64,000 bases of DNA from the NCBI GenBank assembly GCA_963816155.1, contig CAWFJE010000002.1:130980-194979 (forward strand). The letters are read 5' to 3'. This DNA is from an uncultured Actinomycetes bacterium (GTDB lineage Bacteria; Actinomycetota; Thermoleophilia; RBG-16-64-13). Shown in pieces: positions 1 to 29,927 of this stretch; position 1 is the first letter of the stretch, and each line of letters starts with the position of its first letter. The notes below the pieces were generated by a model. The model worked only from the letters and a program-made list of their open reading frames with translations, was not told the DNA's origin and did not search any database. The translations under genes were made by a program, and so were the position numbers.

Positions 1-803
1 GTGGCAAGCAGCTTGAGCGCTAGATTGCCGGCCTCAGCGCCCAGGATGGTGACGAACAGGTCGAGGGTCGCCCTGGCGAGTTCGCAGGGCCGGCCGGCGT
101 CGCTCGCCGCCGCGAGGACAGCGGGGGTGGGATCTTCCGACGCGCTTAGCTCTTCGGCCAGCCAGGCCGGCTCGGGAAGGCCGGTGGTCTTCAGATACGC
201 GTACAGGTTGGGGATGCCCAGACCTCCAGAGCAGACCCGCTCGAAGCTCACATGGTCGAACCCCTGGGCGTTCATGTACGCGAGAAGGCCGACCTGCAGC
301 GGGCCCACCGGTGCGAAAGCCGCGTGGCTGCCTTCGCAGCCGTGTGCGTGATAGGCGCCACCGTCATACGTCAAGTACCCCTCCCCGAGACCGGTCCCGG
401 GCGCGAGCACCGCGATGCTGCCGCCGGGCACCCGCGTGCCCGCACTCAGGGTATGGAGGTCCTCTTCTTCGAGCACAGGGATCGCGCAACCGATCGCTCG
501 CATGTCGTTCAGCAGGGCCACTTCAGACCAACGGAAGAACGACTGCAGAGCGGCCCCGTCCACCACCCAGGAAAGGTTCGTGATACGCGCGCGTCGCTCT
601 ATCACCGGGCCGGCCACCCCAAAACACGCGCGGCCTGTATCGATGGGGAACTCCTCGAAGAACTCGCCGATCATGTCCTCGAGCGTCTCGTGCTGCGCGC
701 TTGGATAGGTCTTGCGAGCCAACGCGTCACGCGGGCCCCTCTCGCTGGAGAAGACCGCCAGGATCGTCTTCGTTCCGCCGATGTCACCAATGAGCACGTT
801 CAT
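1..803 (-). CDS. glk: glucokinase (Glk family, PF02685), C-terminus runs off the left window edge
   Basis: Reverse-strand translation gives MNVLIGDIGGTKTILAV...GVAGPV...LNDMRAIGCAIP...AVLAPGTGLGEGYL...HGCEGSHAAFAP...FDHVSFERVCSGGLGIPNLYAYL, collinear with E. coli Glk motifs (VGDVGGTNAR, GAGTGLGVAHL, GEGGHVDFAP, HVSAERVLSGPGLVNLY). The ATG at 803-801 follows the upstream divergent region. Absent from the ORF track because no stop codon lies within the window. Confidence 0.8.
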   Translation of the reverse strand, partial: MNVLIGDIGGTKTILAVFSSERGPRDALARKTYPSAQHETLEDMIGEFFEEFPIDTGRACFGVAGPVIERRARITNLSWVVDGAALQSFFRWSEVALLNDMRAIGCAIPVLEEEDLHTLSAGTRVPGGSIAVLAPGTGLGEGYLTYDGGAYHAHGCEGSHAAFAPVGPLQVGLLAYMNAQGFDHVSFERVCSGGLGIPNLYAYLKTTGLPEPAWLAEELSASEDPTPAVLAAASDAGRPCELARATLDLFVTILGAEAGNLALKLLA

Positions 804-942
804 CGTTATGCTTCCCAGGAGTGGATTGAGTCGACCATATCGATACCCTATCAGAACATGCCGGTCAACCTGTGACCTGAGAGAATACTCCTGCAGAGAC
901 GCGGGTTGTCGAACGGCAAGAGGGTGGCAAAGGAGACAGATC

Positions 943-2424
943 ATGGGCATCCAGTACAACATTCTGCAGCGCGGATTCAGGAATCTCCCGAATGACTCGA
1001 GCCCAACAGGCTTCCAGTTGCTGGTGAAATCCAACTACTACAGGGGCGTGGTGCTGTCGCTCATCGACGATGTAGAGGTGAGTGTGGACGGCGTACGTTT
1101 CGAGCGCAGCCGCATCAGTTTCCAGACGGGAGGGCGGACATACCGGCTCCAGGAGATGGAGCAGGTGAGCGATGTACATTGGCCGTGGCTGGAACCGGCG
1201 ACGCTGATCGTCGACCACCCTGGCGGGCTGACACCGGGGGTACACGACGTGCTCGTGGTCGTGAAGCTCAGGATCTCGTACATGCCGTTCAATCCGCTCC
1301 CGTTCTTCTTCCACGAGAAGCTCGTGCTCATGCCCAGCGCTGATCCCGTCGCAACGAGGGTGGATGCGCCCCGGTTGAAGCTCTCCGCGTCGCTCTACAG
1401 CTACAACGGCGATCTTCAGGCCGGCACCATGACGCTGGAGGACTGTCTGGCCGACTTGTCAGAGATGGGTTGCGAGGGCGTGGAATTCCTTCCGGAGGCC
1501 ATCGTTCCCGACTACCCGGACCCCCCACGATCCTGGCTGAAGCAGTGGTTCGGTTGGATGGACAAGTACCGGCTCACTCCGGTGGCGCTTGACGGAGGAG
1601 CCGATACGAAACTCTACAAGAGCCGCAAGCTGGACGTGGATGAGATCGTCGACTTGATCGTCCAGGACCTGAAGCTGGCCAACACTCTTGGGTGCACGGT
1701 GTACAGGGGTCTGGGTAGTTCCTGGCCGTCCGCGCTCGACGTCTCCGCCAACGTGGGCAAAAAGACCGACTGGAAGGGAGGGATCACCCCTTTCCAGATC
1801 TACGAGAAGTTGCTGCCCTTCGCGGAGAAGTATGACGTGAAGATGGGAGAGGAGCTACACATTCCTTTCCTCATGGAGTCGGATTGGCTCGAGCAGACGA
1901 TCGAACTCATCGACAGAACCGGTACTGAGTATCTTGGGTTCGTTCCCGACCTGAGCATCTTCGCACGGCGTCCGCCTCACCAACTGGACCCCGAGACGCT
2001 GACGGGTGGCGGAATGTCGAGGGAGTTGGTCGATTACATCTACGAGTGTCGCGAGAACCTGCTGCCGGAAGAGGAGGTGAAGAAGAAGGTGATGGAGATG
2101 GGCGCCGGACCGATGGGAATTCCCGTCACCGCCATGATCTACCACCTGACGTATTCGACTAAGGAACGGAACGAAGCGGAGCAGTTGGCCGCACTGGTCC
2201 CCTATAGCGTGCATATACACGCCAAGTTCTGGGAGGTGCTCGAGGACTTGTCCGACGAGCGCAGCATCCCCTACAGCGAGATCGTTCCAGTGCTCGCTCG
2301 CGCGGGCTATTCGAACTACTTCTCCAGCGAGTACGAAGGGGATCGGACGCCATTCGTCGCGTCGAACCAGATCCGGCGGCAGCACCTCATGGTTCGGCAG
2401 ATGTGGGAGTCGGCGGACCGCTGA
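943..2424 (+). CDS. fusion protein: N-terminal ~130 aa DUF6379-like domain (resembles C-glycoside deglycosidase beta subunit) + C-terminal xylose-isomerase-like TIM-barrel sugar phosphate isomerase/epimerase (resembles C-glycoside deglycosidase alpha subunit)
   Basis: RBS AAGGAG 7 nt upstream of ATG 943 (MGIQYNILQRG...). The N-terminal stretch (GFQLLVKSNYYRGVVLSLIDDVEVSVDGVRF...LIVDHPGG) fits the ~130-aa DUF6379 proteins that partner TIM-barrel enzymes. The remainder (EGVEFLPE..., TLGCTVYRG, YSNYFSSEYEGD) is a TIM barrel of the AP-endonuclease-2 / xylose-isomerase-like fold. The longer ORF call from 712 would overlap the glk start. Confidence 0.6.
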   Translation: MGIQYNILQRGFRNLPNDSSPTGFQLLVKSNYYRGVVLSLIDDVEVSVDGVRFERSRISFQTGGRTYRLQEMEQVSDVHWPWLEPATLIVDHPGGLTPGVHDVLVVVKLRISYMPFNPLPFFFHEKLVLMPSADPVATRVDAPRLKLSASLYSYNGDLQAGTMTLEDCLADLSEMGCEGVEFLPEAIVPDYPDPPRSWLKQWFGWMDKYRLTPVALDGGADTKLYKSRKLDVDEIVDLIVQDLKLANTLGCTVYRGLGSSWPSALDVSANVGKKTDWKGGITPFQIYEKLLPFAEKYDVKMGEELHIPFLMESDWLEQTIELIDRTGTEYLGFVPDLSIFARRPPHQLDPETLTGGGMSRELVDYIYECRENLLPEEEVKKKVMEMGAGPMGIPVTAMIYHLTYSTKERNEAEQLAALVPYSVHIHAKFWEVLEDLSDERSIPYSEIVPVLARAGYSNYFSSEYEGDRTPFVASNQIRRQHLMVRQMWESADR

Positions 2425-2444
2425 CCCGTGACAGTGTCCGCAGG

Positions 2445-2783
2445 TCAGAGTAGTTTGGTCGCGTCCGCCTGGCGTGGGGTCTTGACCACCAAGAAGCGAA
2501 AGTCGGCGTCGCTCTCGTTAAACAGGCGATGAGGGACGCGGGCCGGGCTGTGGATCAGCATGTCTGCGGCCACTTCCTCGGTCTCACCCCCGATCTCCAC
2601 TTTGCCGGTGCCTTCCAGGACGTAGAAGAACGCATCCACCGGGGTGAGATGTAGCTTCAGGCCTTCGCCGGGTTTGAGTGTGATCATGCTCACCTGGACG
2701 TGCTCGGTGCTGTGCAGCCCGCGGGCGTCCACGCCGTGTGGGTTCTCGCTTCGTGCGGCTTCACGCGCCTTCACGATCTTCAC
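2445..2783 (-). CDS. cupin domain protein
   Basis: 112-aa ORF with a cupin two-motif core (HSTEHVQVSMITLKPGEG ... FYVLEGTGKVEIGGE ... PHRLFN); convergent with the upstream TIM-barrel gene. Confidence 0.6.
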   Translation of the reverse strand: MKIVKAREAARSENPHGVDARGLHSTEHVQVSMITLKPGEGLKLHLTPVDAFFYVLEGTGKVEIGGETEEVAADMLIHSPARVPHRLFNESDADFRFLVVKTPRQADATKLL

Positions 2784-2821
2784 TGGTCTCTCCTATCGTC
2801 CACGCGATTCCAGAACTGGGC

Positions 2822-3652
2822 CTAGGCCCTCCGAACCTCGATGTCGCCCAGGTTCTGATCCTTGACCGTGGCATCGATGGGACCGAGCTTCTGAGCAAGG
2901 TACCCGGGCTTCTCGATGAGCAGGGTGTAGGTGCCATCGGGGAGGTTCTTCAGCCAGAAGTCGCCATAGTTGTCGGTCTCGGTCGTGGTCTTCTCCCCCG
3001 TGGCCAGGTTGGTGGCGGTTACGGTGGCACCCATGGTGCACTCGTCGGCCTCCCGGTCATAGACGGCACCGGCGATCCACTTCTGGGGCAGGTTGAGGTA
3101 GTAGACCCGTGGGCGAGTGGGAAGCTCGGACTTGAGCAGTTCCGCCCCGGCCATGAGTTCCTTGATGGCGGGGTCGTCGTCATCCCCGAAGGTGAACGCT
3201 CCGGTGGGACAGGCGTCCGAGCATCGGGTCTCGGTCCAGCCCCGATCGAGGAGATGGGCGCAGAAGGTGCACTTCTGGGCGATGCCCAGGTCGTCGTTGA
3301 AATAGATTACGTTCTCGTAGGGGCAGGCCTCCATACAGAGCTGGTTGCCCCGGCACTTCTCGGGATCGATGATGACGATGCCGTCGGACCTGCGGTAGAT
3401 GGCGTTCACGTTGCAGGCGCTGATGCAGGGGGCGTCTTCGCAGTGTTGGCAGATGGAGTGGTGATAGGTGACCTGGACCTTGGGTACGGTGCCCCGCTCC
3501 AAGTTGATGACCTTGTTCCAGAACTGCCCCGTGTCCGGCTGCGGCTTGGCGATGGGAGACCAGTCGTTACCGACGTGCTCATCCTTGCAGGCCACCTGGC
3601 AATTGTGGCATCCGTTGCAGATCGAAAGGTCGATGATCATCACCTTGCCCAT
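2822..3652 (-). CDS. molybdopterin oxidoreductase beta (electron-transfer) subunit: multi [4Fe-4S] ferredoxin domain + C-terminal carboxypeptidase-regulatory-like beta-barrel domain; pyrogallol hydroxytransferase small-subunit-like
   Basis: MGKVMIIDLSICNGCHNCQVACKDEH...CQHCEDAPCISAC...CRGNQLCMEACPY...CTFCAHLLDRGWTETRCSDACPTG gives Cys clusters typical of DmsB-like subunits. The C-terminal TATNLATGEKTTTETDNYGDFWLKNLPDGTYTLLIEKPGY is a CarboxypepD_reg-like fold. The ATG at 3652-3650 overlaps the stop of the alpha gene (ATGA). Confidence 0.8.
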   Translation of the reverse strand: MGKVMIIDLSICNGCHNCQVACKDEHVGNDWSPIAKPQPDTGQFWNKVINLERGTVPKVQVTYHHSICQHCEDAPCISACNVNAIYRRSDGIVIIDPEKCRGNQLCMEACPYENVIYFNDDLGIAQKCTFCAHLLDRGWTETRCSDACPTGAFTFGDDDDPAIKELMAGAELLKSELPTRPRVYYLNLPQKWIAGAVYDREADECTMGATVTATNLATGEKTTTETDNYGDFWLKNLPDGTYTLLIEKPGYLAQKLGPIDATVKDQNLGDIEVRRA

Positions 3653-6252
3653 CAGGCACCGCCTTCCGTGAAGCCGGCCAAGCACGGTCCGGCGCTGATA
3701 TGACATTCCCGAGCGAACGCTTCCGGGTACTGGGCTGTGAGCGCTTCAAGGCTGACCTTCTCCACCTCTGCCAGGAACCCAGAGACCGCATGGCCGCAGG
3801 CGTTCTTGGAGGTGATGTTGCGCGGCACGATGGTGTTGATGGCGCCGCCACGGTCGATCACTCCGGGCACGATCGGGTCATATTTGGCTCCGTGATCCAT
3901 CCCCACAGCGCCCGGGATGATGCGCTCGGTGACATAGGCGCCGGCCAACACCGTCCCCCGCTCGTTGAGGATCGAGACCACGTCTCCGCTCTTGATCCCT
4001 CGGGCTTCAGCATCCACAGGATTGATCCAGAGGGGATGGTACTGGTATCCATCCACACCTCTCACCTTGCATGTCTCGATCTCGCGTAGCCAGGTGATAT
4101 CGTCGTGCTGGGAATGCACCCCCCACCGCGGGTGGTTGCTCATGACCAGAAGCGGATACTTCTTCGAGCGCTCCGTACCGATGGTCTCCTCATGGGAGAT
4201 TCCCTGCGGGATCCATTTGGGCACCGGCGGCCGCTCCAGATCGTCCGGGAAGTGCTCAGCCAAGCCGGTGGCGAAGAACTCGATCTTCCCGGTGGGCGTG
4301 CTCAAGGGGTACTTCTCCGGATCCTCGTAGAAGTTGATGAGCCCCGCGGGGATGCTTTCCCAGTCCGGATCGGTGGGTACGACGTAGTAGCCCTTTTCGC
4401 ACAGATCTTCCCAGGACACCAGAGGCGCCACGCGGGATGTCTCATAACCCAGCCTGATCAACTCGGGGATGGTCCTGCCGCCCGTGTACTCCTCCAGCAT
4501 GCCCAACCGGTCCGCGATCTTGCAGACGATCTCGTAGTCGCTGAAGGACTCCCCCAGAGGCTCGATGCACCTTTCTTCGGGAAACAAGAGGTTCATCTGC
4601 CCGCTGAAGATGTCGCTGCCGATATCGTCCTCTTCCAGCTTGGTGTTGACCGGAAGGATGATGTCGCAGAAGAGAGCGTCGTTCTCGAGCCACGGATGCT
4701 GGCACAGCATGAACTCGATCTCAGGCTTCCTGACCGCCTGTACGTAGTCGTTGCCGCTGTTCCAGCAGGTGATCCAGGAAGGCGAATCAGTCCAGATCAT
4801 GCGGATCTTCGAGCAACCGTCGGCCGGATACTTGTAGTGGACGAACTGGTTCTCGCGCATAGCGAACTCGCATTCGTTGCCCCACCAGTCGATCTCACCC
4901 TCAAGGATAGCCTTGGGAACGAGGCTCTTCGGGATGAACGAGGGATGATTGGTCAAAGCCGGGGTGCTTCCCGTGTAGGCAGCGCCCAGGTGGGTCAGCA
5001 CCGAGGGAGCCGGGGGTGACATCTGCTCCCAGTCGTCGAGGAGGCCCCACTCGATCATCTTCGATTGATTGCAGCCCGGACGGCCCAGACCCTGCATCGC
5101 GAGGCAGAGCACCTGAAGGCGCGCCGGCTCGGTGGCGTACGGGCCGCGGATGCCGGGGCCACCGTTCCCGATGACGACCGTAGTGCGTTTGGAAGCCCAC
5201 TCATCGGCGAGCGCCTTGATGATGCGGCTCGGCACTCCAGTTATGGGCGAAGCCCACTCCGGAGACTTGGGCACACCGTCTTCCGCACCCATGACGTAGT
5301 CCTCGAACTTGTCGACGCCGTAGGCGTGGGTCTCGAGATAGGCCTTGTCGTAGGTGCCGTTCTTGAACCACTGGTGGCAGATGGCCAGATAGAGCGCGGC
5401 GTCGGTGTTGGGGAGGATCGGGATCCACTTGTCGGCGTGCACCGCGTTCGCGTAGTTCACGTCTGGAGCAATGTAGATCTGCTTGATGCCCAGCTCCGTC
5501 CACCAGTAGCTCAGGCGGCTGGTGAGCTGACCCTGCCAGCCCCACACGGTCGTCTCTTGATCGCAGCCCCAGAAGAGAAGCAGTTCAGCGTTCTTGGAGA
5601 TGTCGTAGAGAAGGTTCTTCTGCGGCATTTGCTGACCGACCGGCTCGCATCCCCACACGTGTTTGGCCCCCCACCACCAGCCTTCCCAACTGTCGGCGTC
5701 GCGGACCTGAAGGGTGTAGCCACCCAGCATGGTGAGCAGCTTGCGCATGCAGCCGTGCGGACCGTGGACCACCTTGTTCTCACCGTGCTGGTCGGACTGG
5801 TTGAGGATGGCCGTGGGACCGTAGGTCTCCTGGACACGGAGGATCTCGCTCGTGACCAGATCGAGCGCCTCCTCCCAACTGATGCGGACATACTTGCTGA
5901 CGCCCCGGTTCTGGGGGTTGCGCTCCCCCTTCGGGTCCCAGTCGACCCGTTTCATGGGATACCGGACCCGCCCGGGAGAATAGACGCGCTTCTTGTACGC
6001 GAGACTGATGGGCGGGATGAGGCTCTTGTCACTGGGCTCGAATGTCGAACCCCGGGCATGCATGACCCAGGGCTTGACCTCTTCCTTGGAGTACTTCTCG
6101 TAGTAGCGGGCGGGACGGATACGGATCATCCGGCCGTCCTTGACATCGACCATGCATGCGTTGGCCCCATTGAAGACCCCGCACCAACTGATATCTCGAA
6201 CGAGGGTCGTCTCTCCGGCCGCGTTCGGCGGTCTCTTGACGAACTCACCCAT
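3652..6252 (-). CDS. molybdopterin (bis-PGD) oxidoreductase catalytic alpha subunit, DMSO-reductase superfamily, pyrogallol-phloroglucinol hydroxytransferase-like; no Tat signal and no N-terminal Fe-S Cys cluster
   Basis: Contiguous ~866-aa ORF. Motifs YPMKRVDWDPKGERNPQNRG, DSWEGWWWGAKHVWG, CIEPLGESFSDYEI, VDAEARGIKSGDVVSILNERGTVLAGAYVTE match the transhydroxylase branch. Preferred start is ATG at 6252 (MGEFVKRPP), preceded by AAGGGGGAG at 6 nt spacing. The ORF track's start at 6285 is GTG. Confidence 0.8.
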   Translation of the reverse strand: MGEFVKRPPNAAGETTLVRDISWCGVFNGANACMVDVKDGRMIRIRPARYYEKYSKEEVKPWVMHARGSTFEPSDKSLIPPISLAYKKRVYSPGRVRYPMKRVDWDPKGERNPQNRGVSKYVRISWEEALDLVTSEILRVQETYGPTAILNQSDQHGENKVVHGPHGCMRKLLTMLGGYTLQVRDADSWEGWWWGAKHVWGCEPVGQQMPQKNLLYDISKNAELLLFWGCDQETTVWGWQGQLTSRLSYWWTELGIKQIYIAPDVNYANAVHADKWIPILPNTDAALYLAICHQWFKNGTYDKAYLETHAYGVDKFEDYVMGAEDGVPKSPEWASPITGVPSRIIKALADEWASKRTTVVIGNGGPGIRGPYATEPARLQVLCLAMQGLGRPGCNQSKMIEWGLLDDWEQMSPPAPSVLTHLGAAYTGSTPALTNHPSFIPKSLVPKAILEGEIDWWGNECEFAMRENQFVHYKYPADGCSKIRMIWTDSPSWITCWNSGNDYVQAVRKPEIEFMLCQHPWLENDALFCDIILPVNTKLEEDDIGSDIFSGQMNLLFPEERCIEPLGESFSDYEIVCKIADRLGMLEEYTGGRTIPELIRLGYETSRVAPLVSWEDLCEKGYYVVPTDPDWESIPAGLINFYEDPEKYPLSTPTGKIEFFATGLAEHFPDDLERPPVPKWIPQGISHEETIGTERSKKYPLLVMSNHPRWGVHSQHDDITWLREIETCKVRGVDGYQYHPLWINPVDAEARGIKSGDVVSILNERGTVLAGAYVTERIIPGAVGMDHGAKYDPIVPGVIDRGGAINTIVPRNITSKNACGHAVSGFLAEVEKVSLEALTAQYPEAFARECHISAGPCLAGFTEGGA

Positions 6253-6380
6253 GCCGATCTCCCCCTTGTTCATTGGTCGAATCACTTGGAGTGGCCTGAG
6301 CCACGGTCAGCGTTCCTGGCGTCCACGTTACTGAGCGTACACTAAGGAATTGGGGCGGCTGTGTCAAACCGGCGCGGCCG

Positions 6381-7446
6381 TCAACCCACCGCCACCCGGC
6401 TCTGCATGCGACGCGCGAGCACCACGACCACGGGTATCAGTACCAGGGTCACGCCCACTGCGACCACGAGATCCACCCACACATCGGTGAGGCCCTTGCC
6501 CAGAACACCCACCTGCCAGATAGGATCGATCATCCAGAAGGTGGGGAAGATCTTGGCCACCCACTGGGGCCACTCGGGGAAGAGATAGAAGACCACCGGA
6601 GCAAGGATGAAGATGCCCGCCACCTTCGCCACAGCCATCATGGATACGGCGCTTCGGGCGGTCACGCCGAGAAGGACGCCGAGAATGGTCGCGAAGACGG
6701 AAGACACGAGAAGAACGATGATCATTGCCGGCGCGTTGCCCAGCGCCCCGTTCAGCGCCAGAGTGACCACCGACATGAGGAAGGCCAGGCTCACGCCCAG
6801 CAGCGCCTTCGCGGCGACCGCTTCGGACGCTTTGAGGGGGGTCACCAGCAATGCCGCCATCGTGCCCTTCTCCCCCTCCTCGATCAAACTCGCAGCCGGG
6901 ACGACAACACCCGCCATCACAAGCGCATACATCACCAGCATGGGGACGAGTCGCTCCGCGAGGGGAAGGGCGGCGGCATCGCCGAGAGTCACCAGCTTCA
7001 CGTCTACCGGGGCCTCTTGACCATCCAGGGCACGGACCGCATCCAGGGTGGTCACTTCAAGAATGATGCGATTCGACGCCAGGCTCTCTCCGCCGGCATA
7101 GATCTCCAACGGCGGCCTGCTCTCGGCGGCTATGGCGGCATCGAAATCCGAGCCGAGGACGACACCGACATCGATATCGTTGTTCTGGACGGCCCGTTTG
7201 AGGGCGGCAGCGTCGTCAAAGCGCGTCACCTCGATGTCCTCGGCAGTTGAGAGGGCGGCCGTGATCTGGGACTGCCCCGCATCGACGATCCCCAGGCGCG
7301 GTGTGGGCTCGAACAACGAGCCGAAGACCACCTGCACCAACAGTGTCATAGCGAAGGGCACGATGATCGCGGCCAGGAACAGGGGCGAGCGAGGTCCCAG
7401 CGAGTAGTCCTTGCGCAGCACTCTCCAGATTCGAGCAAGGCTCACA
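6381..7446 (-). CDS. ABC-2 family transporter permease
   Basis: Six-TM ABC-2 type permease with a large N-terminal extracytoplasmic loop. GTG start at 7446-7444 overlaps the upstream stop (GTGA). Confidence 0.7.
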
Positions 7447-8605
7447 GCGATGCGACCTTTCTCTTGAGCGTGAAGCGACCGAGCAGGTAGATGACCACCA
7501 ACCAGGCAAGTAGCGGTATGAAATAGATGGCCACGTCGTCCCATGACTCGCCGTAGGCCGTCACTCTGTGGAGCACCTCTACGAGGCCGTATGTGGGCAA
7601 CACCTTCACCAGCCAAGAGGAAGATCCGGGGAAAATGATCGCGACCGCCGGTATGGCCAGCGGCACGATGAGGAGCATCGTGTACAGCAGGGTGCCGATG
7701 AAATCCTTGGATGCAGCGCCGGTGATCATGGCGACGCCGGCGAACATCACGCCTCCCAGTATCATGGTGAGTAGCAGCAAGGGCCAGTTCGTGAGCGTGA
7801 ACGCCCCCATAGCCGCCAGGATGATGACTCCCTGGCCGGCGGCCATAAGCGCTCCGTAGGCCGTCTTGGCGCCCAGGACATCCCCCAGGCGAGCGGGAGT
7901 CGCGAGTATGGCGATCACCGTGCGCTGTCCGACCTCATTCGAGATCAGCACGGCGAGGGATAGGGTCTCGAGCATCAACACGAAGAAGGCGAAGAGGGCG
8001 CGAAACTGATCGCGCATCGACACCTGGGCGCCGGCTCGATCCTCGCCGAGGACCACCACGGTTTCCGCGGGAAGCGTGACCGGTAACTCATCGCCGCGCA
8101 GCCCATAGGCCAACTCTCGAACGAAACTGGTCATGGCCGCCCGCACGGCCGCTGCCGCCTCGGAGTCGGAGTAGATCACCACCGTGGTCTTCAGGCCTTC
8201 CGCGGTGTCGGCAGCGAAATCCGCGGGAAAGTCGACACCGATCTGCACCGAGACCCTGTCGGCGCCGTCCGGCTTCTCACCGCCGAACACGAAGGTCCCA
8301 TCCCCGGTCTTCCAGACATCGAGATCACCGGTCACCGCGGCCTTCAGGTCGTCGGTGGATGCGAATTCGACGAACGCCAAGCCCTCAGCCCCCGCGTACG
8401 CATCGAGCACCTGGTCCATGTCTTTCTGATGGATTCCAAGGACGAGCGTCTCGTCGACCGAACTGGGCATGATCCAGAAGACGGCCACGAGCACAACGAG
8501 CCCGAGGATGGATATCAGCATGATGAAGCGATTGCGGGAGAACTCCTGCAGGTCCTTGCGAAGGATGGCCGCCACGATGGCGGCGCGGGAAACCGGACGG
8601 CTCAA
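7442..8605 (-). CDS. ABC-2 family transporter permease
   Basis: 387-aa membrane protein (MSRPVSRAAIVAAILRKDLQEFSRNRFIMLISILGLVVL...). Its start overlaps the stop of the ATPase gene. Confidence 0.75.
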   Translation of the reverse strand: MSRPVSRAAIVAAILRKDLQEFSRNRFIMLISILGLVVLVAVFWIMPSSVDETLVLGIHQKDMDQVLDAYAGAEGLAFVEFASTDDLKAAVTGDLDVWKTGDGTFVFGGEKPDGADRVSVQIGVDFPADFAADTAEGLKTTVVIYSDSEAAAAVRAAMTSFVRELAYGLRGDELPVTLPAETVVVLGEDRAGAQVSMRDQFRALFAFFVLMLETLSLAVLISNEVGQRTVIAILATPARLGDVLGAKTAYGALMAAGQGVIILAAMGAFTLTNWPLLLLTMILGGVMFAGVAMITGAASKDFIGTLLYTMLLIVPLAIPAVAIIFPGSSSWLVKVLPTYGLVEVLHRVTAYGESWDDVAIYFIPLLAWLVVIYLLGRFTLKRKVASL

Positions 8606-9468
8606 GCCTCCAGCCCCCTTCCTGTCACGCGGATGAAGATCGACTCCAGCGTCGCTTCTTCGGTGTGAATGGTGAGCAGACCGTCGGACTGCGCGGCGCG
8701 CTTGAGCGCTTCGCCGGTCGCCTGATCATCCAACTCCAGTACCTGTTCGCGTACCCCGGCGCCATCGGCGCGGGTGCGCAGTCGTACCGATCGCCGGCCA
8801 TACTCGAGCTTGAGCGCCTCGGGTGTATCGAGCGCCACGACATGCCCTTCGTTGATGAAGGCGACCCGGTCGGACAGCATATCCGCCTCGAGCATATCGT
8901 GGGTGGTGAGAAGAACCGCCGCGCCACGGGCCGCCTCCTCCTTGATGGTCGTGCGTATGGCGGCCGACGTGGTGGGGTCCAAGCCGTCCGTGGGCTCGTC
9001 GAGGAAGAGGACCTTGGGCCCATTGATGAACGAGCGGGCGATCATCACGCGCTGGCGCATGCCCTTTGAGAAGGTCTTCACCCGATCGTTGGCCCGGTCG
9101 GCGAGCCCCACGCGGCGCAGCACCTCCAGAGCATCGAGATCCTTGATGCCGAACAGGCTGGCGTAGAAGCGCAGATTCTCTTTGGCCGACATATCGAGGT
9201 ATAGGTTCTTCTCCTCGAAGCACACGCCGATCTGCGCCTGTATCTCGCTGTTGTCCTGGCTGATGTCCTGCCCCAAGACCCGGGCGATGCCGGATTGCGG
9301 CGTGAGTTGCCCGGTAAGCACCTTGATGGCCGTGGACTTGCCGGCACCGTTCGGCCCCAGGAAGCCCAAGATCTCTCCCGGCTGAACCGTGAAGCTGATC
9401 CCCTTGAGCGCCTGGATCTTGCCGTAGGAATAGGTCAGGCCTTCGACACTGATGGCGGCTTCGGTCAA
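8602..9468 (-). CDS. ABC transporter ATP-binding protein (ABC-2 exporter ATPase)
   Basis: Walker A GPNGAGKST, signature FSKGMRQR, Walker B VLFLDEPTDGLD, H-loop TTHDM. Probable TTG start at 9468 is preceded by GGAAGGAG at 7 nt spacing. The longer ORF to 9543 lacks an RBS. Confidence 0.85.
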   Translation of the reverse strand: MTEAAISVEGLTYSYGKIQALKGISFTVQPGEILGFLGPNGAGKSTAIKVLTGQLTPQSGIARVLGQDISQDNSEIQAQIGVCFEEKNLYLDMSAKENLRFYASLFGIKDLDALEVLRRVGLADRANDRVKTFSKGMRQRVMIARSFINGPKVLFLDEPTDGLDPTTSAAIRTTIKEEAARGAAVLLTTHDMLEADMLSDRVAFINEGHVVALDTPEALKLEYGRRSVRLRTRADGAGVREQVLELDDQATGEALKRAAQSDGLLTIHTEEATLESIFIRVTGRGLEA

Positions 9469-9550
9469 CGTGCTGCTCCTTCCGTGTTGGCCGCTGAAGG
9501 GCGGACCCATGGACGTTTGCGGGGCACTCCGCGGGCAGCGCACGCGGCAC

Positions 9551-9865
9551 TCACGAGAGCGCCGCCAAGCTCTCAGACCGGTCTACGAGCGCGTGGCGCA
9601 GTTGTTCATAGTCGTACATATGGAGACTACCGGTGGCGGCTCCCAAGATGCGCTCCACAGCTGTTTCGACCGCCCTCAACTTGACCAGCACCAGGCAAAC
9701 CTTGTCGATGTCCCCGATAGACTCGAGCAGCAGCGGCGAGATGGCGCGCGTTGCGCCCATCGACAGCCACATCGTCGCCTCGGCGGCAGCGTCTGGGTCC
9801 GGGCAGTCAAAGACGCCCTCGGCCGAACCATCGCGGACGATGGCGGTTAGAAGTGCCTGCACCAC
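9551..9865 (-). CDS. TetR-family C-terminal ligand-binding-domain-only protein (HTH missing; likely a truncated remnant)
   Basis: 104-aa ORF resembling TetR_C domains. There is no room for an N-terminal HTH because the DUF362 gene ends at 9870. GGGAGGA RBS precedes a GTG start. Confidence 0.4.
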   Translation of the reverse strand: MVQALLTAIVRDGSAEGVFDCPDPDAAAEATMWLSMGATRAISPLLLESIGDIDKVCLVLVKLRAVETAVERILGAATGSLHMYDYEQLRHALVDRSESLAALS

Positions 9866-9869
9866 CGAG

Positions 9870-11117
9870 TTAGTGGATTATCCTCCCCAGCAACGGTTGC
9901 TTTATCGCGATGGCCCGCTCCGGGCACAGCTCTTGACAGCAATAGCAGCGGATACACAGGGCGTAGTCGTGGACGGGCGGCCTCTTCTGGGCGCGCGCTT
10001 CGGGAGTGGCGAATTCCACGGCCTTCGGACTGACCGGGCACACGGCCGCACAGGTGCCGCACGCCGTACACAGGTCCGGGTCGATTGCAGGCCGGGGTAC
10101 CAGCCGGTTCCGGAAGAACCGGCCCAGCGGACCCGCGGTCGTTTCCGTCTCGCCGGTGGTGGACTGTCGCTTGCGGTTCACTACGAAACCCTCGTCGACG
10201 AACGAGTCCACAGAATCCCCCAGGACTTCGATATCGGAGGCCGTGCCCAGGCCGAACTCCTCGCCGTAGGTGATCGTAGGTACCAGAGACACATCGAGAG
10301 CTATGATGCGGCAGGCGACCGTATCGAGGGCGACGGGGTCATCCGAGAAGAGAAGGGCGTGGATGGGACGGGCGTCGCCGCTACGAGGGCCGTTGCCCTG
10401 CATGGCGACAATAGCGTCCATCGCGTAGAGGCGGGGACGCAGCAGCCGGTTGAGGTCCACAATCGCCTGGGCGAGCCGCTCCGGGGTACCCATGCGTACG
10501 TGAAACTCGCCCTTGAGCAGGCCTGGAACGCAGCCGAAGGTGTTCTTGACTGCGCCTGTCATGCGCGTGAGCCCATGGGCCTTCAGTTTGCAGATGGACA
10601 CCAGCCCGTCTGCGTCGAGGGCGCCTACGGCGACGGTGAACTGCTTCATCAGGCGCCCGTCCGGGTAGGAGACCATCCGGCCGGTGGAGAAATCGGCCTC
10701 ATCAATGCCAAACTCGTCAGCGACAGCGGCCAACCCGGCCTTGCGGGCCGCCCCCGCGGCTCGCCCAAAGCCTGGAGAGTCCCCCCAGCTCAGCCGGACG
10801 CCGGCGTCCTTGAGAAGCTGGGCCACCGCACGAAACACGGTCGGGTGAGGACTTACTAGGCCTTCGGGCGTGCTTGCGGCTAGAAGGCCTGGCTTAAGGA
10901 CGATGTATTCACCGGGCCGCACAAATCGGGTGGCGCCCCCGAGCAGATCCAGCCCCCGCCTGGTCGCCTCGAGCACGGCAGCCTCATCGTAATCGGGGCA
11001 GCGGACCAAAGCGACTAGGGCCCGCCCCAGCGCTGTGGATGATGACTCCGCCCCTGTAGCGGGCCATGGACTGGCGACCGTTTCATCCGGGCCTGGACCG
11101 CCTCCCGAGCCGGTCAT
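9870..11117 (-). CDS. DUF362 domain protein with C-terminal 2x[4Fe-4S] ferredoxin motifs
   Basis: MTGSGGG... start with RBS GAGGTGA. DUF362 core (GVPGLLKGEFHV... etc.) plus CTACGTCAAVCP and CIRCYCCQELCPERA clusters. Confidence 0.75.
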   Translation of the reverse strand: MTGSGGGPGPDETVASPWPATGAESSSTALGRALVALVRCPDYDEAAVLEATRRGLDLLGGATRFVRPGEYIVLKPGLLAASTPEGLVSPHPTVFRAVAQLLKDAGVRLSWGDSPGFGRAAGAARKAGLAAVADEFGIDEADFSTGRMVSYPDGRLMKQFTVAVGALDADGLVSICKLKAHGLTRMTGAVKNTFGCVPGLLKGEFHVRMGTPERLAQAIVDLNRLLRPRLYAMDAIVAMQGNGPRSGDARPIHALLFSDDPVALDTVACRIIALDVSLVPTITYGEEFGLGTASDIEVLGDSVDSFVDEGFVVNRKRQSTTGETETTAGPLGRFFRNRLVPRPAIDPDLCTACGTCAAVCPVSPKAVEFATPEARAQKRPPVHDYALCIRCYCCQELCPERAIAIKQPLLGRIIH

Positions 11118-11299
11118 CGACTCACCTCGATGGAGGTGGCAAGCCCCGGCGAGACCGCTGAGACCGGTGGTTTGCCCAGGTAGCTCTTCTGTCTGGCCAT
11201 ACTGACTCCCACTGCAAGGTTTGGTATGTGAATGTTCCCTCGCAAAGTGGTTACTATGCCTCGGCTCTTCGCGCACCCCGCTTCGCTCCGGCCGGGCGT

Positions 11300-11514
11300 G
11301 GGCAACGTTCACCGCCACACTGACCAAGGCGCGTGAGATTGTGCTCGGCAAGCGTCGCATCACCGCAGAGACCGCGCTTCGCCTGGCTCGCTACTTCGAC
11401 ACCACGCCTCAGCTTTGGCTGGGCCTGCAGTCTGACTACGACCTTGACGTCGCGTCGGATGAGATAGGGGCCCGTCTGGAGCGTGAGGTTCGGACGCACG
11501 CTGTGGCGGTGTAG
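11300..11514 (+). pseudogene. HigA-family (XRE HTH) antitoxin remnant; N-terminus degraded, no HigB partner
   Basis: C-terminal ...GKRRITAETALRLARYFDTTPQLWLGLQSDYDL matches the HigA signature. The upstream in-frame sequence is non-homologous. Confidence 0.45.
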
Positions 11515-11706
11515 CACTGCGTCGGGGCAGGCGGAAGCCAAGGCCGGCTCAGGGGCGTATCGCGCACAACAAGTATCATTCCGACAGCCCCCCCGCTCTG
11601 CTACCATGCGAACCTACGCCAATCACTGAGGGAGGCCTTTATCTTCAAGGTAGAAGCGAGTGGACAGGAGTCTTGCGAGCTCCCTCCTAACAGCAGCTTT
11701 GTTCTC

Positions 11707-11991
11707 GTGCGAGTTCCCATTCGCATCGAAGGCGAGGGCCGGCCAGACGAGGCCACTTTTCACTACAGCATCGGTTCATTTCGTGGTCGGGACACCGCCC
11801 TCTCCCTGCGGGCAGGCGCCCAGACCACACTTCGCTTTCGCATCCCCTTGGAACTCTTTCGTTCTCGGGAGCACCTCATCATCACGATCCTTGCTGAGAC
11901 GCCCGGCGGAGAAGAGCGAGTTCTTTGGCTCCAGCGCTGGGAGGCCGCCTGGCAAGGCAAGGCTCCGTCCTTGGAGCCACTGGGCGAATAG
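11707..11991 (+). CDS. hypothetical small protein (94 aa)
   Basis: ORF only; no recognisable motif. Lies in the decayed island. Confidence 0.2.
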   Translation: MRVPIRIEGEGRPDEATFHYSIGSFRGRDTALSLRAGAQTTLRFRIPLELFRSREHLIITILAETPGGEERVLWLQRWEAAWQGKAPSLEPLGE

Positions 11992-12178
11992 GCCAAGCGG
12001 ACCGGCATTCAGCCGGTTGCGGCGCCCACAGGGTGGCGCATCATTTTGGACTAGGGTAGGACGCAAGGGTAGGTGACGTCCGCCCGCAGGGCTTCAGCCC
12101 CGAAGCGCACGGCGGCTAGGAGCGTGTCGGGAAAACCACGCACGTGAAGTCTAGACTCTCCCGGGCCGGGCGGGTAGT

Positions 12179-12390
12179 GTGGCTGGAAACGATCCAGGAG
12201 GCGTGCTCGTGGCCCGGGATTTTCTACCCTATGATCTCGATCAGCAGTATCTCCTTCCCCCCAGCCTGAAAGACTGGCTGCCCGCTGGTCACCTGGTCGT
12301 CTTCGTCTCCGACGTGGTCGACTCCCTGGATCTCTCGGCCGTCATGGACACGTACCAGAAAGACGAGCTTCGCGGCCGCCCCGGATACAA
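12179..12390 (+). mobile_element. IS1182/IS5-type transposase N-terminal fragment (Transposase_InsH_N-like); truncated IS remnant
   Basis: ARDFLPYDLDQQYLLPPSLKDWLPAGHLVVFVSDVVDSLDLSAVMDTYQKDELRGRPGYN matches the conserved N-terminus of IS1182-family transposases (DxxLPYDPxxxLLPPxLxDWLPEDHLAxFVxDVVDxLDLS). Homology ends at about 12388. No DDE domain and no inverted repeats were seen. Confidence 0.6.
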
Positions 12391-12729
12391 CGCTCGCCCA
12401 TCTCGCCGACATCGTCGACTGCTGCGAGGCGATCGCCGCCACTATGCAGGGCGTCGACCGTCACTTACGAGTCCACCCGAACGCTCCGGTCGGCGGTGGA
12501 GCGCGAGTTCCCCGTCATTGGGGAGGCCGTCAAAAGACTGTCGAGGATCGACCCCGCGCTCTCGTCGCGCATCTCCCACGCTCGAATGATCGTCGGCTTT
12601 CGCAATCAGTTTGTTCACGACTGCGTGGCGATCGTCGACAAGGTAGTGGGGACCATCGCCCTGAATGACGCCCCGATTCTGCGGGAAGAGTGCGCCAAGC
12701 TCATCCGGGAATTGCAGGAGCCAGAATAG
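12387..12729 (+). pseudogene. HepT-family (DUF86) toxin, frameshifted remnant
   Basis: Frame 0 reads LAHLADIVDCCEAIAATMQGVD (HepT N-terminal helix). A 1-nt shift near 12455 leads to frame 1: TYESTRTLRSAVEREFPVIGEAVKRLS...IVGFRNQFVHDC... (the Rx4HxY-like motif is degenerate). The MntA partner is absent and replaced by the IS fragment. Confidence 0.5.
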
Positions 12730-12865
12730 TCGAAATCGGCCCGGAAGCTGGAGTGGCCCGTCTGCCGCTCGGCAGTACGTGCCAATGAGCGGGCTCTCGC
12801 CCCAAGCCTCCGGGCCGACTACAATTCAAATGAGGAGAATCCTTCGAGAACACGGGGGGAGAAGA

Positions 12866-13303
12866 ATGGCAGAGAAGAGCTTTACCAAGGAAGATGTGCT
12901 GAAGAAGGTACCCCTATTCAGCAGGTTGAGCAAGAAGAACCTGGTAGAGGTCGTCCGAATAGCGGATGTGGTTGAAGTGCCGGCGGGCAAGGTCTTGGTC
13001 AAAGAAGATACGCGAAGCTTCGAATTCCTCATGATCCTGGAAGGTCAGGCGAAGGCTGAACAATGCGGGAGACTGCTCGGCCGACTCTCCCAGAACGATT
13101 TCTTTGGAGAAATAGGCCTCATCGCGCAGAGGCCTAGCCCAGCTACCGTTACGGCCGAGACTGCCGTGAAGCTCCTTGTGGTAGGGCCGAGGCACTTCGA
13201 GGGTCTGCTCGACAGGGTGCCTGATCTATGGAAGGAAATCGCGATCGCTCTTTGCGACTACATCCCCAGCACCTGTGATTTCCCATTGGAACTGGAGACG
13301 TAA
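12866..13303 (+). CDS. cyclic-nucleotide-binding domain protein (stand-alone cNMP-binding domain, no DNA-binding HTH)
   Basis: RBS GGGGGAGAAGA upstream of ATG 12866. cNMP motif FGEIGLI...RPSPATVTAETAVKLLVV (PF00027). Confidence 0.65.
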   Translation: MAEKSFTKEDVLKKVPLFSRLSKKNLVEVVRIADVVEVPAGKVLVKEDTRSFEFLMILEGQAKAEQCGRLLGRLSQNDFFGEIGLIAQRPSPATVTAETAVKLLVVGPRHFEGLLDRVPDLWKEIAIALCDYIPSTCDFPLELET

Positions 13304-13363
13304 CGCGTAACACGGTGAGTGCGCGCTGGGACTAGGTGAGGCCCTGCGCCAAAGGGAGGCCCG

Positions 13364-13996
13364 TTGAAAAGAGCCCGCAGCACTCGGCGGACGAAGGCTG
13401 AAAGACAGCGAGAGATCGCCGAGGCCACCCTGAAGTTGGTCGCCAGATACGGCGTCCACGGCACGACCGTTTCTCGCATCGCCGCGGCCGTCGGGCTCTC
13501 GCGAGGGGCTCTGTACAAGCATTATTCGAACCGAGAAGCGGTCCTTCTGGCCGCCATGGACCTCATGGATGAGCGACCACCCGGTTGGGTGGCCGGGTCA
13601 TCTGGACCCGACGTCTACAGCCGTCTCCTCGACATGGGTGACCGCCATGCCTCCTGGGCTTCATCTGAATTCGAAACGTTTATCCATCCGCTCTTCGAGT
13701 TCATCGCCGCCGGCAGACAGGGGAGCCTCAGCAAAGAGATGGGCGTGAGGCAACTCAGAGTCCTCGATGCCTTCATCAATCTCGTCGACGAAGGGAAAAG
13801 GGAGGGAAGCATCCGCGCGGAGGTCGATTCCAACGATGTGGCCTGGAGCCTTCTGATGTTTGCCTGGGCAGAGGATGTCGCCCGGCTGATGGGAGTGGAC
13901 CAATTGATCACCAGCGGCGCGTCTAACAGGATCTTCAGGCGTATGCTCGCTGACGTGGCAGCGCTCCCTTCGGGCAATCGAGAGGGCGATTCCTAG
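13364..13996 (+). CDS. TetR/AcrR family transcriptional regulator
   Basis: N-terminal HTH REIAEATLKLVARYGVHGTTVSRIAAAVGLSRGALYKHYSNREAV. Confidence 0.85.
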   Translation: MKRARSTRRTKAERQREIAEATLKLVARYGVHGTTVSRIAAAVGLSRGALYKHYSNREAVLLAAMDLMDERPPGWVAGSSGPDVYSRLLDMGDRHASWASSEFETFIHPLFEFIAAGRQGSLSKEMGVRQLRVLDAFINLVDEGKREGSIRAEVDSNDVAWSLLMFAWAEDVARLMGVDQLITSGASNRIFRRMLADVAALPSGNREGDS

Positions 13997-14158
13997 CGGC
14001 ACCAAGCAGGACTCCCCACTGCATTGACCAGCTTCGTTGTTTCTGCTAGGTTGGTCTTGCTGACTCGGTAAACGACCGTTCACCACGTGGCTCCTTCTGA
14101 ACTGTTGCGTCTCAATCACATTCATCAAGGGGGGCATCATGGAAACGGAGGCGCATCG

Positions 14159-14401
14159 GTGAACACAATTGATATCGACCTTGCCGCCTGTAACGGCTGC
14201 CAGATCTGCTACCGAGCCTGCTTCGTGGACGTCTTTCGCTGGGACGAGGCCGCGAAGCGGCCTATCGTTACCTACCCGGAAGACTGCGTGCAGTGCAATC
14301 TCTGTGAACTCAACTGCCCGACCGATGCCGTCACAGTGACCGTCGACTGGGACAAGCCCTTCCCCTCCTCTTTGGAGGGTCGGCCGAGGTACCCGGCATG
14401 A
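14159..14401 (+). CDS. 2x[4Fe-4S] ferredoxin
   Basis: CNGCQICYRAC and CVQCNLCELNCP clusters. GTG at 14159 with GGAGG 8 nt upstream. The stop overlaps the ATG of the next gene (ATGA). Confidence 0.7.
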   Translation: MNTIDIDLAACNGCQICYRACFVDVFRWDEAAKRPIVTYPEDCVQCNLCELNCPTDAVTVTVDWDKPFPSSLEGRPRYPA

Positions 14402-16119: not shown

Positions 16120-16134
16120 CCCCCGGAGGACACC

Positions 16135-17901: not shown

Positions 17902-17972
17902 TATCGGTCAAGGATCATCGTCCGGTTTGTAGACCTGCTGAAGGAAAGTCGTCATCCACGGCATGGTGGCTT

Positions 17973-22477: not shown

Positions 22478-22661
22478 GACCGCCGCCTCCTGTGCACGAG
22501 GACACGCCGGTCATGGTATCAAGCATCAACGTCCTACGGCGCCGACCATATCCTGTGGCAGCCCGGCGGCAGGTCACGGGGCACGTGTTGGGGGCAAGTG
22601 TAAAGCAGGTGCCGGAGCCACGTGCTCAATCGGATCGGATCTACACGTCGAGGCGGCGGGC

Positions 22662-29853: not shown

Positions 29854-29927
29854 CGACGGCGAGGTATCCGAATCGGTCATGAACGACCGGTCACATACAG
29901 CACCGGTCCTCCGCGCGCGGAGGACCG

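Follow-up and report, generated by a model that had tools for sequence, protein, structure and literature searches.

Gene organization of the locus

The window, the 64-kb stretch of DNA that was analyzed, begins inside a glucokinase gene on the reverse strand (positions 3–803; Pfam PF02685, E = 1.8e-65), the 3' part of which is cut off by the window start. Divergent from it, on the forward strand, lies a gene (943–2424) that is predicted from its translation, Pfam domains, and PDB sequence and fold matches to encode a C-glycoside deglycosidase (CGD) in which the β and α parts are fused. The open reading frame runs unbroken from an ATG at 943 to a stop codon at 2422–2424. An earlier note on this DNA had described a single polypeptide of 494 aa; the single polypeptide is borne out, while the product is 493 aa long, as the 494 codons include the stop. 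A Shine-Dalgarno-like AAGGAG (930–935, forward strand) was read from the sequence 7 nt upstream of the ATG, and its GGAG is kept in the aligned intergenic regions of three related loci (L002, L015, and L017). The ATG at 943 is a sensible start because a longer reading from TTG at 712 would cross the start of the divergent glucokinase gene at 803. The same glucokinase-CGD intergenic alignment contains a conserved GATACCCTATC element (842–852) with a short inverted repeat (GATA/TATC), the core of which (ATAC-CTA-CA) is invariant among the window, L002, L015, and L017, and this element may be an operator. Scans for sigma-70 promoters and intrinsic terminators around the CGD gene found nothing.

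The first 131 residues of the protein (943–1335, forward strand) form a β-subunit domain, as delimited by Pfam, by alignments to DgpB and DfgB, and by the stand-alone β proteins of two loci with unfused genes (L018 and L019). The earlier proposal that this region belongs to the DUF6379 family held up, since residues 5–113 match Pfam PF19906 (“CGDB, C-glycoside deglycosidase beta subunit,” formerly DUF6379) over its full length (profile positions 4–112 of 112; E = 1.6e-33; 115 bits against a cut-off of 27.6 bits). The AF2 prediction renders the domain all-β, with strands up to residue 129. It is followed by a linker of ~13 residues (residues ~132–144, SADPVATRVDAPR; 1336–1374, forward strand), recognized from the alignment and AF2, which is gap-rich and unconserved, varies in length and sequence even within its own clade, and has a pLDDT below 50 at residues 134–142.

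The remainder of the chain (residues 145–493; 1375–2421, forward strand) aligns with 8qvc_A and DgpC as an α-subunit TIM barrel, and Pfam PF01261 (AP_endonuc_2) matches residues 170–337 (E = 2.3e-11). Both families thus occur in one open reading frame, as expected for a covalently joined β+α CGD. Within the α domain, AF2 and the alignments place a helical lid insertion at residues ~345–420 (1975–2202, forward strand), with predicted helices at 350–355, 360–371, 376–385, 392–402, and 412–416. The helical lid of CGDs has been described previously (PMC10628242); DgpC and 8qvc_A have the corresponding stretch, most of which is missing from fused proteins of the 8qrz type.

Predicted metal site and catalytic residues

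In AgCGD2, Mn2+ is bound by E147, D179, H269, K271, and E305, and the catalytic residues are H149 and E307 (Mori et al., PMC8563793). These correspond to E304, D336, H426, K428, and E463, the predicted metal ligands of the window protein by alignment to known CGDs, and to H306 and E465, its predicted catalytic pair. H306 also aligns with H143 of DgpC, and E465 lies within an E-x-E motif; the catalytic His and its Glu partner in PuCGD are H143 and E301. Among 29 aligned fused sequences, E304, H306, D336, K428, E463, and E465 are invariant, and H426 is found in at least 90%. The metal ligands and catalytic residues of the deglycosidases are therefore present in the window protein.

A further such residue lies in the β domain. 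Tyr39β of PuCGD is essential for the cleavage of C-glycosides but not of O-glycosides (PMC10628242), and in an ungapped alignment (residues 13–117 of the window protein with 19–123 of DgpB) its counterpart is Y33, which belongs to a Y33-R34-G35 motif that is invariant across the 29 fused sequences.

Similarity to deglycosidases and to sugar isomerases

The only strong sequence matches of the window protein in the PDB are CGD α and β subunits and one fused CGD. One and the same chain matches the α subunits 8qvc_A (E = 1.6e-52), DgpC (7bvr_A, 3e-43), DfgA (7bvs_A, 3e-36), and AgCarB2 (7dnm_A, 3e-26) as well as the β subunits DfgB (5.8e-19 to 5e-18), DgpB (6.6e-18 to 7.5e-17), and AgCarC2 (1e-08), although the nearest characterized enzymes are only ~30% identical. 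The AF2 model (pLDDT 84.6, pTM 0.86) covers the whole of the single-chain CGD 8un2_A in Foldseek (E = 1.2e-36, TM 0.85 normalized to the target) and matches the α subunits of DaCGD, DgpC, AgCarB2, and DfgA with target-normalized TM scores of 0.81–0.88. The match to the entire 8un2_A chain implies the same relative placement of the two domains; on this model, the β domain would pack on the barrel and the active site would lie at the α/β interface, as in other CGDs.

As PF01261 is a broad superfamily, the JGI label for homologs is “sugar phosphate isomerase/epimerase,” and NCBIfam has no model that matches the window protein, the gene could in principle encode an ordinary sugar isomerase, epimerase, or dehydratase, such as an inosose dehydratase or a ketose 3-epimerase, with an unrelated N-terminal domain. 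This is very unlikely. The top 16 Foldseek matches are all CGD α subunits or fused CGDs (ranks 3–16 are all CGD α), and the epimerases and isomerases rank below them at 8–14% identity; a full-length CGDB makes up the N-terminal domain; and in its catalytic His/Glu pair, as in having Glu as the first metal ligand, the protein follows the CGDs. The barrel accordingly groups with CGD α subunits rather than with ordinary isomerases, and the product is probably a cytoplasmic, single-chain CGD that acts as a 3-keto-C-glycoside β-eliminase dependent on Mn2+ or another divalent metal.

Genomic neighborhood

The region comprising positions 1–2416 of the window is 87, 84, and 76% identical at the DNA level to L002, L017, and L015, respectively. 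An Actinobacteria-like origin, which the earlier note had suggested, is plausible, given the 87% DNA identity of the gene region to a metagenome-assembled genome (MAG) labeled Actinomycetota. The gene order in L002, L017, and L015 is GFO, GMC, AP_endonuc_2, XylA2-like, IclR, CGDB, α (285 aa), GH43, glucokinase (reverse strand), and fused CGD. Glucokinase is syntenic in all three and is the only conserved neighbor of the CGD gene within the window, whereas the rest of the conserved cluster in the relatives, including GH43, a second and unfused CGD pair, IclR, and GMC and GFO oxidoreductases, lies beyond the window edge. No GMC or GFO oxidase was found in the 64-kb window by tblastn with GMC and GFO queries, and because the window begins inside the glucokinase gene, it is from synteny that a 3-oxidase gene is predicted upstream. 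A flavoprotein encoded at 14308–16119 (FAD_binding_2/Succ_DH_flav_C) was considered for this role and rejected, as it sits in a block with TetR, Fer4, and S15-peptidase genes and is of neither the GMC nor the GFO type. The idea that the GMC enzyme of this syntenic cluster is of the CarA type was not supported, since this enzyme more closely resembles the large subunits of FAD-dependent fructose/glucose dehydrogenases.

Other close homologs are found in C-glycoside clusters as well. In L016 (72% identical) and in the locus of P0013 (70%), a downstream GFO gene and the fused gene overlap, and the GFO gene of L016 matches DgpA1 (E = 1.3e-144) and DgpA (4e-122) and is a DgpA ortholog. In L020, the fused gene is found amid three more CGDB/α pairs together with GH43, ThuA, MFS, and GFO genes. 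One exception is L014 (82% identical), where genes for C-glycoside use are not obvious beside the homolog.

On the other side of the CGD gene, the block at ~2417–13334, which contains a cupin and a pyrogallol-transhydroxylase-like Mo enzyme, is absent beside the gene in the otherwise syntenic L017. A functional link of the CGD with the cupin and the Mo enzyme was rejected because the block is missing beside the gene in every relative examined; of the locus partners named earlier, glucokinase is retained as a conserved neighbor, and the cupin and the Mo enzyme are not. The window cupin also shows no significant similarity (E = 0.02) to a cupin near the CGDs of L019.

Proposed pathway and substrate

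A separate oxidoreductase, of the DgpA/GFO type or a GMC flavoenzyme, would first oxidize C3 of the sugar of a plant aryl-C-glucoside, and its gene would belong to the cluster that in close relatives sits just past the left edge of the window. The 3-keto-C-glycoside would then bind where the C-terminal TIM barrel and the N-terminal β domain form a pocket between them, in which the metal would be held by its five predicted ligands, H306 would abstract the C2'' proton with the assistance of E465, and Y33 may help to stabilize the phenolate of the aglycone. Cleavage of the C-C bond by β-elimination would yield the aglycone and 1,5-anhydro-D-erythro-hex-1-en-3-ulose, and the latter may be converted to glucose and phosphorylated by the adjacent glucokinase.

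The same fold and chemistry could instead serve 3-keto-O-glycosides or other 3-keto-sugars, which would make the protein a β-eliminase for glycosides in general within an oxidative glycan or glycoside pathway. Some 3-keto-O-glycosides are cleaved by characterized CGDs, 3-keto-phlorizin by PuCGD among them, and O-glycosides are also the substrates of eliminases that share this fold (PMC10628242); moreover, the clusters of the relatives, with GH43, ThuA, 3keto-disac_hyd, and a GMC enzyme of the glucose/fructose dehydrogenase type, are typical of general 3-keto-glycoside metabolism. However, the O-glycoside eliminases have neither a β subunit nor a lid (PMC10628242), and the window protein has both, the invariant Y33 is the counterpart of a residue needed specifically for C-glycosides, and the GFO partner in L016 is a DgpA ortholog. 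A physiological role on O-glycosides is therefore unlikely, and the protein is best regarded as a probable C-glycoside deglycosidase.

Frequency and origin of the fusion

Among the 150 best cluster representatives at 50% identity, 23 are fusions, and NCBI already has a name for such proteins ([quoted passage not shown]), so the rarity previously assumed for the fused form does not hold. Fusion events are many and occur in both domain orders in this survey. The clade of the window protein comprises 26 cluster representatives from different assemblies, which are 62–89% identical, 488–505 aa long, and have the same unbroken architecture.

A fusion of this kind might also arise from a frameshift in sequencing or assembly, from a mis-called gene, or from the decay of two adjacent genes into a pseudogene, and the homologous gene in the MAG locus L002 is indeed split into several frames. 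Such an origin is hardly credible for the window gene, as its own frame is unbroken, an identical 493-aa protein (P0139) is on record from another source, the 26 representatives share the conserved catalytic residues in addition to their architecture, and a fused CGD of a cultured bacterium has already been crystallized.

In neighbor-joining bootstraps on the α domain (200 replicates), the clade was monophyletic in 200/200 and grouped with unfused α subunits in 188–199/200, whereas it joined the 8qrz type in 0/200. The fusions of the window clade and of Microbacterium testaceum are independent, since their α domains belong to different lineages that were never joined in the bootstraps. Where the linker lies, the unfused relatives have the β stop codon, the intergenic spacer, and the α signal peptide. 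The fusion in this clade probably derived from a β→α gene pair that lost its β stop codon and spacer along with most of the Tat-like signal of the α subunit, which left the linker of ~13 residues.

On a more far-reaching reading, the clade could be an uncharacterized, independently fused lineage of long-form CGDs. Its heteromeric ancestor would have been periplasmic, and the fusion, taking the place of the Tat export signal, would have shifted C-C bond cleavage to the cytoplasm. As the fused CGD is retained in the same cluster as a second, unfused short-form CGD, its substrate range may be distinct, for example in the class of aglycone or the position at which the sugar is attached through carbon. 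In this organism, phenolic aglycones released by the enzyme might then pass to the cupin and the pyrogallol-transhydroxylase-like Mo enzyme encoded next to it. As a whole, this scenario is speculative and rather doubtful.

Significance and comparison with known enzymes

Puerarin, vitexin, orientin, mangiferin, and carminic acid are C-glycosides, which are resistant to ordinary glycosidases. To our knowledge, CGDs are the only route to the aglycones of C-glycosides in gut and soil. A single-chain CGD that contains a lid would be suited for use as a one-gene biocatalyst, and it also provides a natural experiment on what leads the α/β pair to fuse in some cases. The window protein leaves the picture of how CGDs work unchanged and is a routine addition to a known enzyme family; because the structure of a fused CGD already exists, the finding is a useful annotation rather than a surprise. 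What the survey adds is the repeated fusion in both orders, a clade located beside extra, unfused CGDs, and unfused sisters that appear to be Tat-exported.

Among enzymes of the same chemistry, AtOGE, an O-glycoside β-eliminase of Agrobacterium tumefaciens, is a TIM-barrel Mn2+ enzyme acting on 3-keto-glycosides (PMC10628242). It shares the catalytic His with the window protein but has no β subunit and no lid, has His instead of Glu as the first metal ligand, and does not cleave C-glycosides (PMC10628242).

The heteromeric CGDs PuCGD (DgpB-DgpC, 7BVR), DaCGD (8QVC), AgCGD2 (AgCarB2-C2, 7DNM), and EuCGD (DfgA-DfgB, 7BVS) have the same two domains as the window protein, and they share with it the Mn2+ site, the His/Glu catalytic pair, and the β Tyr. 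The α subunits of PuCGD, DaCGD, and AgCGD2 are also of the long form with a lid. In these enzymes, however, the domains are two polypeptides in αβ, α2β2, or α4β4 assemblies (PMC8563793), the identity to the window protein is 26–32% for α and about 30% for β, and the two small insertions of the window clade (residues ~256–261 and ~279–284) are missing.

Both halves of the window protein have their nearest relatives in unfused β→α pairs of uncultured Proteobacteria (L018, with a CGDB of 131 aa and P0031; L019, with a CGDB of 131 aa and P0032), which are 56–62% identical in β and 58–59% in α, have the same gene order as the fusion, and form the sister group of the window clade in 188–199 of 200 bootstraps. 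Their stand-alone β proteins stop at the residue matching 131, exactly where the linker starts, and the two genes lie 42–50 nt apart in place of the one gene of the window clade, adjoining GMC and Gluconate_2-dh3 or GFO oxidoreductase genes. Nearly all close unfused α subunits start with a Tat-like MTRKxFLQT signal peptide, which suggests that they are periplasmic enzymes, whereas the fused clade has no signal and would be expected to act in the cytoplasm.

The closest known counterpart in overall design is the C-glucosyl deglycosidase of M. testaceum (8QRZ, crystal structure; 8UN2, cryo-EM; released 2025-04-23), a single chain of 435 aa with β followed by α, which runs counter to the premise of the earlier note that known CGDs are all heteromers. 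A literature search for descriptions of fused or single-chain CGDs returned nothing relevant, and the documentation consists of the PDB entry titles. This enzyme is the best sequence match of the window protein (E = 1.1e-59) and its best two-domain fold match (target-normalized TM 0.84–0.85), and the two have in common the β Tyr-Arg-Gly motif, the catalytic His/Glu, and all but a minority of the metal ligands. On the other hand, they are only ~30% identical, the M. testaceum enzyme is shorter and lacks most of the helical lid (residues ~356–419 of the window protein are unmatched) that the window clade keeps, and its relatives have Gln where the window clade has the metal ligand H426. The window protein would thus work in the manner of the M. 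testaceum enzyme, yet by its α-domain affinities and its lid it stands outside the 8QRZ lineage of fused CGDs, and what is specific to its clade is the independent fusion, the retained lid, and the descent from a β→α pair whose unfused α relatives carry Tat-like signals.

Architecture and active site

The gene at 943–2424 (+) consists of 493 codons and a stop without interruption, preceded by an AAGGAG 7 nt ahead of the ATG at 943. A mechanically longer reading frame could begin at the TTG at 712, but this would collide with the start of the divergent gene at 803, and therefore the ATG at 943 is the credible start. An orthologous fused gene in an Actinomycetota metagenome-assembled genome (MAG) (L002, 10001–11477; 87% DNA identity) is broken across several reading frames and represents either a long-read assembly error or a pseudogene.

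The encoded protein contains a complete PF19906 domain at residues 5–113 (profile positions 4–112 of 112; E 1.6e-33), as proposed by the earlier note for the first 130 residues under the former family name DUF6379; Pfam now calls the family ‘CGDB, C-glycoside deglycosidase beta subunit’. PF01261, the xylose-isomerase-like TIM barrel, is located at residues 170–337, and no NCBIfam model matches the protein. Based on an alignment of 29 fused proteins, pairwise alignments to solved C-glycoside deglycosidases (CGDs), and an AlphaFold2 model (pLDDT 84.6, pTM 0.86), the chain comprises an all-β CGDB domain (residues 1–131) and the barrel (145–493), which carries a helical lid of four to five helices (approximately 345–420). 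The linker between the domains (approximately 132–144) is variable in the 29-protein alignment and of low confidence in the model.

Strong sequence matches in the PDB were CGD components only, including the α subunits 8qvc_A (1.6e-52), DgpC (3e-43), DfgA (3e-36), and AgCarB2 (3e-26) and the β subunits DfgB, DgpB, and AgCarC2. The top match, the 435-aa chain 8qrz_A/8un2 (E 1.1e-59), covers both domains. Together with the complete PF19906 domain and the PF01261 match, these CGD-only matches support the claim of a single-polypeptide β+α fusion far beyond chance, and the earlier guess of CGD function was probably right. The barrel likewise groups with CGD α subunits: in a Foldseek search of the PDB, the top rank went to the single-chain ‘Microbacterium testaceum C-glucosyl deglycosidase’ (8un2_A/8qrz_A; E ~1e-36, 30% identity, TM 0.85 across the entire target) and the next ranks to CGD α subunits, whereas ordinary sugar isomerases and epimerases appeared at 8–14% identity only.

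The Mn2+ ligands of AgCGD2 are E147, D179, H269, K271, and E305, and the catalytic residues are H149 and E307, equivalent to H143 and E301 of PuCGD (Mori et al., PMC8563793). In the alignment to solved CGDs, the ligands match E304, D336, H426, K428, and E463, so that the metal-binding residues of deglycosidases are present, and the catalytic pair matches H306 and E465. All of these are invariant among the 29 fused proteins except H426, which is kept in at least 90%. None of the results that the earlier note had named as refuting its reading was obtained. Tyr39 of the β subunit is required for cleavage of C-glycosides but not O-glycosides (Bitter et al., PMC10628242), and Y33, within an invariant Y-R-G motif, falls on this residue in an ungapped alignment to DgpB.

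Gene neighborhood and proposed reaction

The left side of the fused gene is the conserved side. The divergent glucokinase at 3–803 (-), cut by the window edge, belongs to an order common to L002 and two further loci with relatives (L015 and L017): GFO_IDH_MocA, GMC oxidoreductase, AP_endonuc_2, XylA2-like, IclR, stand-alone CGDB (133 aa), short α (285–288 aa), GH43, glucokinase (-), and fused CGD. In the glucokinase/CGD intergenic region, a conserved GATACCCTATC element with inverted GATA/TATC arms (842–852) has a core that is invariant across the window, L002, L015, and L017, and may be an operator, for example for the IclR regulator of the cluster. Given the synteny, the 3-oxidising enzyme sought by the earlier note should lie 6–10 kb upstream of the window, inside which tblastn detected no GMC or GFO homologue. 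The GMC enzyme of the cluster is nearer to the large subunits of FAD fructose/glucose dehydrogenases than to CarA-type oxidases. Among more distant clade members the association is direct: the fused genes of L016 (72% identical) and of the P0013 locus (70%) each overlap the GFO gene downstream of them, and the L016 GFO gene matches DgpA1 (E 1.3e-144) and DgpA (4e-122). In L020, the fused gene lies amid three further CGDB/α pairs, GH43, ThuA, an MFS transporter, and a GFO. The L014 homologue has no such C-glycoside-cluster neighbors.

Three or four CGDB/α pairs share one locus in some genomes (L019 1–17086; L020 1–21479), accompanied in L019 by a DAPG/phloretin-hydrolase-family gene, a cupin, a cyclase, and an SDR, and in L020 by a TonB-type outer-membrane protein, GH43, and ThuA; both look like large polyphenol C-glycoside utilization loci.

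In the proposed mechanism, with chemistry drawn from PMC8563793 and PMC10628242, a GFO or GMC enzyme would oxidize the sugar at C3, and the 3-keto-C-glycoside would be held between the barrel and the β domain of the fused protein. Metal-bound hydroxide, H306/E465, and Y33 may then drive deprotonation and β-elimination, giving the aglycone and 2-hydroxy-3-keto-glucal. Hydration and reduction of the latter would yield glucose, which the conserved adjacent glucokinase would phosphorylate.

The genes to the right of the fused CGD, every one of them on the minus strand, encode a small cupin (2445–2783), the β (2822–3706) and α (3652–6285) subunits of a molybdenum enzyme, two ABC-2 permeases with an ATPase (6381–9543), and a DUF362/ferredoxin protein. 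The earlier note read the cupin and molybdenum enzyme as part of the CGD locus, a reading that the relatives do not bear out. The L017 homologue belongs to the same cluster at ≥90% identity as the window protein, and its DNA, 84% identical, aligns with window positions 1–2416 and then with 13335–17941 in inverted orientation; the molybdenum/cupin/ABC block has no counterpart in this DNA alignment, and in the other relatives examined unrelated genes stand on this side of the fused CGD. The block is not a conserved partner of the fused CGD. As L017 lacks it despite being syntenic elsewhere, the region at approximately 2417–13334 may be an insertion.

The molybdenum enzyme (2822–6285, -) is a clear homologue of the Pelobacter pyrogallol-phloroglucinol transhydroxylase (large subunit to 4v4c_A, E 1.1e-134; small subunit to 4v4c_B, E 1.6e-50), with similarity extending to the C-terminal CarboxypepD_reg-like domain, and its host looks like a member of Actinomycetota. 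The inverted segment (window 13335–17941; L017 12676–17380) is conserved as a block near the fused CGD in both and encodes a TetR regulator, a small ferredoxin, a FAD_binding_2/Succ_DH_flav_C flavoprotein, and an S15 X-Pro dipeptidyl peptidase; its distance to the fused gene differs between the two. Elsewhere in the window, a 1068-aa fusion protein (19304–22510, -) carries a HAD (β-phosphoglucomutase-like) domain at its N-terminus, followed by a complete GH65 glycoside phosphorylase. An intein that bears a LAGLIDADG homing-endonuclease domain (Pfam Intein_splicing, LAGLIDADG_3) splits the replicative helicase DnaB (40394–43099, -). In the purine biosynthesis run (24632–38782; purH, purM-like, purF-like amidotransferase, purB, purD, and purA), a binding protein of the iron-siderophore type and a permease, lying as a pair, break the series. 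The genes for UPF0182, a PASTA Ser/Thr kinase, and Lon protease, which come further on, fit an actinobacterial chromosome.

Origin of the fusion

The clade of the window protein is tight (P0001–P0026; 62–89% identical, 488–505 aa) and falls entirely into one 50%-identity cluster; its labeled genome matches are MAGs of Actinomycetota and Acidobacteriaceae. In neighbor-joining bootstraps on the α domain, the clade was monophyletic (200/200) and sister to unfused α subunits (188–199/200), and was never joined with the M. testaceum-type fused group (0/200). This topology requires either an independent fusion or several fissions, the latter being less parsimonious, so we favor an independent fusion in this clade. 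The nearest relatives of both halves are the same unfused β→α pairs of uncultured Proteobacteria (L018 and L019; 56–62% identity in β, 58–59% in α), whereas identity to other fused forms is 33–36% in β and approximately 30–34% in α.

The junction is consistent with such a fusion. The stand-alone β proteins of L018 and L019 terminate with KLVLMG and a stop, while the window protein reads on as KLVLM-PSADPVATRVDAPR-LKLSASLYSYNGDLQ, with LKLSASLYSYNGDLQ at the position where the unfused α barrel starts. Nearly all close unfused α subunits open with a Tat-like MTRKxFLQT signal and an Ala-rich hydrophobic stretch, which the fused proteins of the clade lack. On the simplest reading, the fusion arose through a deletion that took out the β stop codon, the 42–50-nt spacer, and the greater part of the α signal peptide; the fused enzyme would be cytoplasmic and its unfused sisters exported, presumably carrying the signal-less β along. 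Tat-like α subunits with signal-free β partners (P0030–P0051; L018/L019, including L019 7951–8000) suggest that, in Gram-negative bacteria, such CGDs are periplasmic and their β subunits hitch-hike there. In L018, a GMC and Gluconate_2-dh3 pair adjoins the Tat-like unfused CGD genes.

Comparison with known deglycosidases

The earlier expectation that a fused form would be unusual rested on an outdated premise. A cultured Microbacterium has yielded a fused CGD whose crystal and cryo-EM structures have been out since April 2025, and 429-aa Microbacterium and Micromonospora proteins are named ‘C-glycoside deglycosidase beta subunit domain-containing protein’ at NCBI. Among 1.84 billion cluster representatives, a full HMMER scan recovered 984 relatives; when the best 150 of these were re-scored against each half of the query, 23 proved to be fusions (21 β-α and 2 α-β), interspersed with unfused sequences across the α-subunit tree. 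A fused CGD is thus not unusual. The reverse fusions (P0164 and P0175) place the barrel first and the CGDB domain at approximately 350–460, the same order as the α→β genes in L005 and L007–L012.

The window protein is best filed as an uncharacterized addition to the known CGD family, with an architecture that is already documented. Its clade keeps the helical lid as in DgpC, DaCGD, and AgCGD2, and in this respect the M. testaceum enzyme is unlike it.
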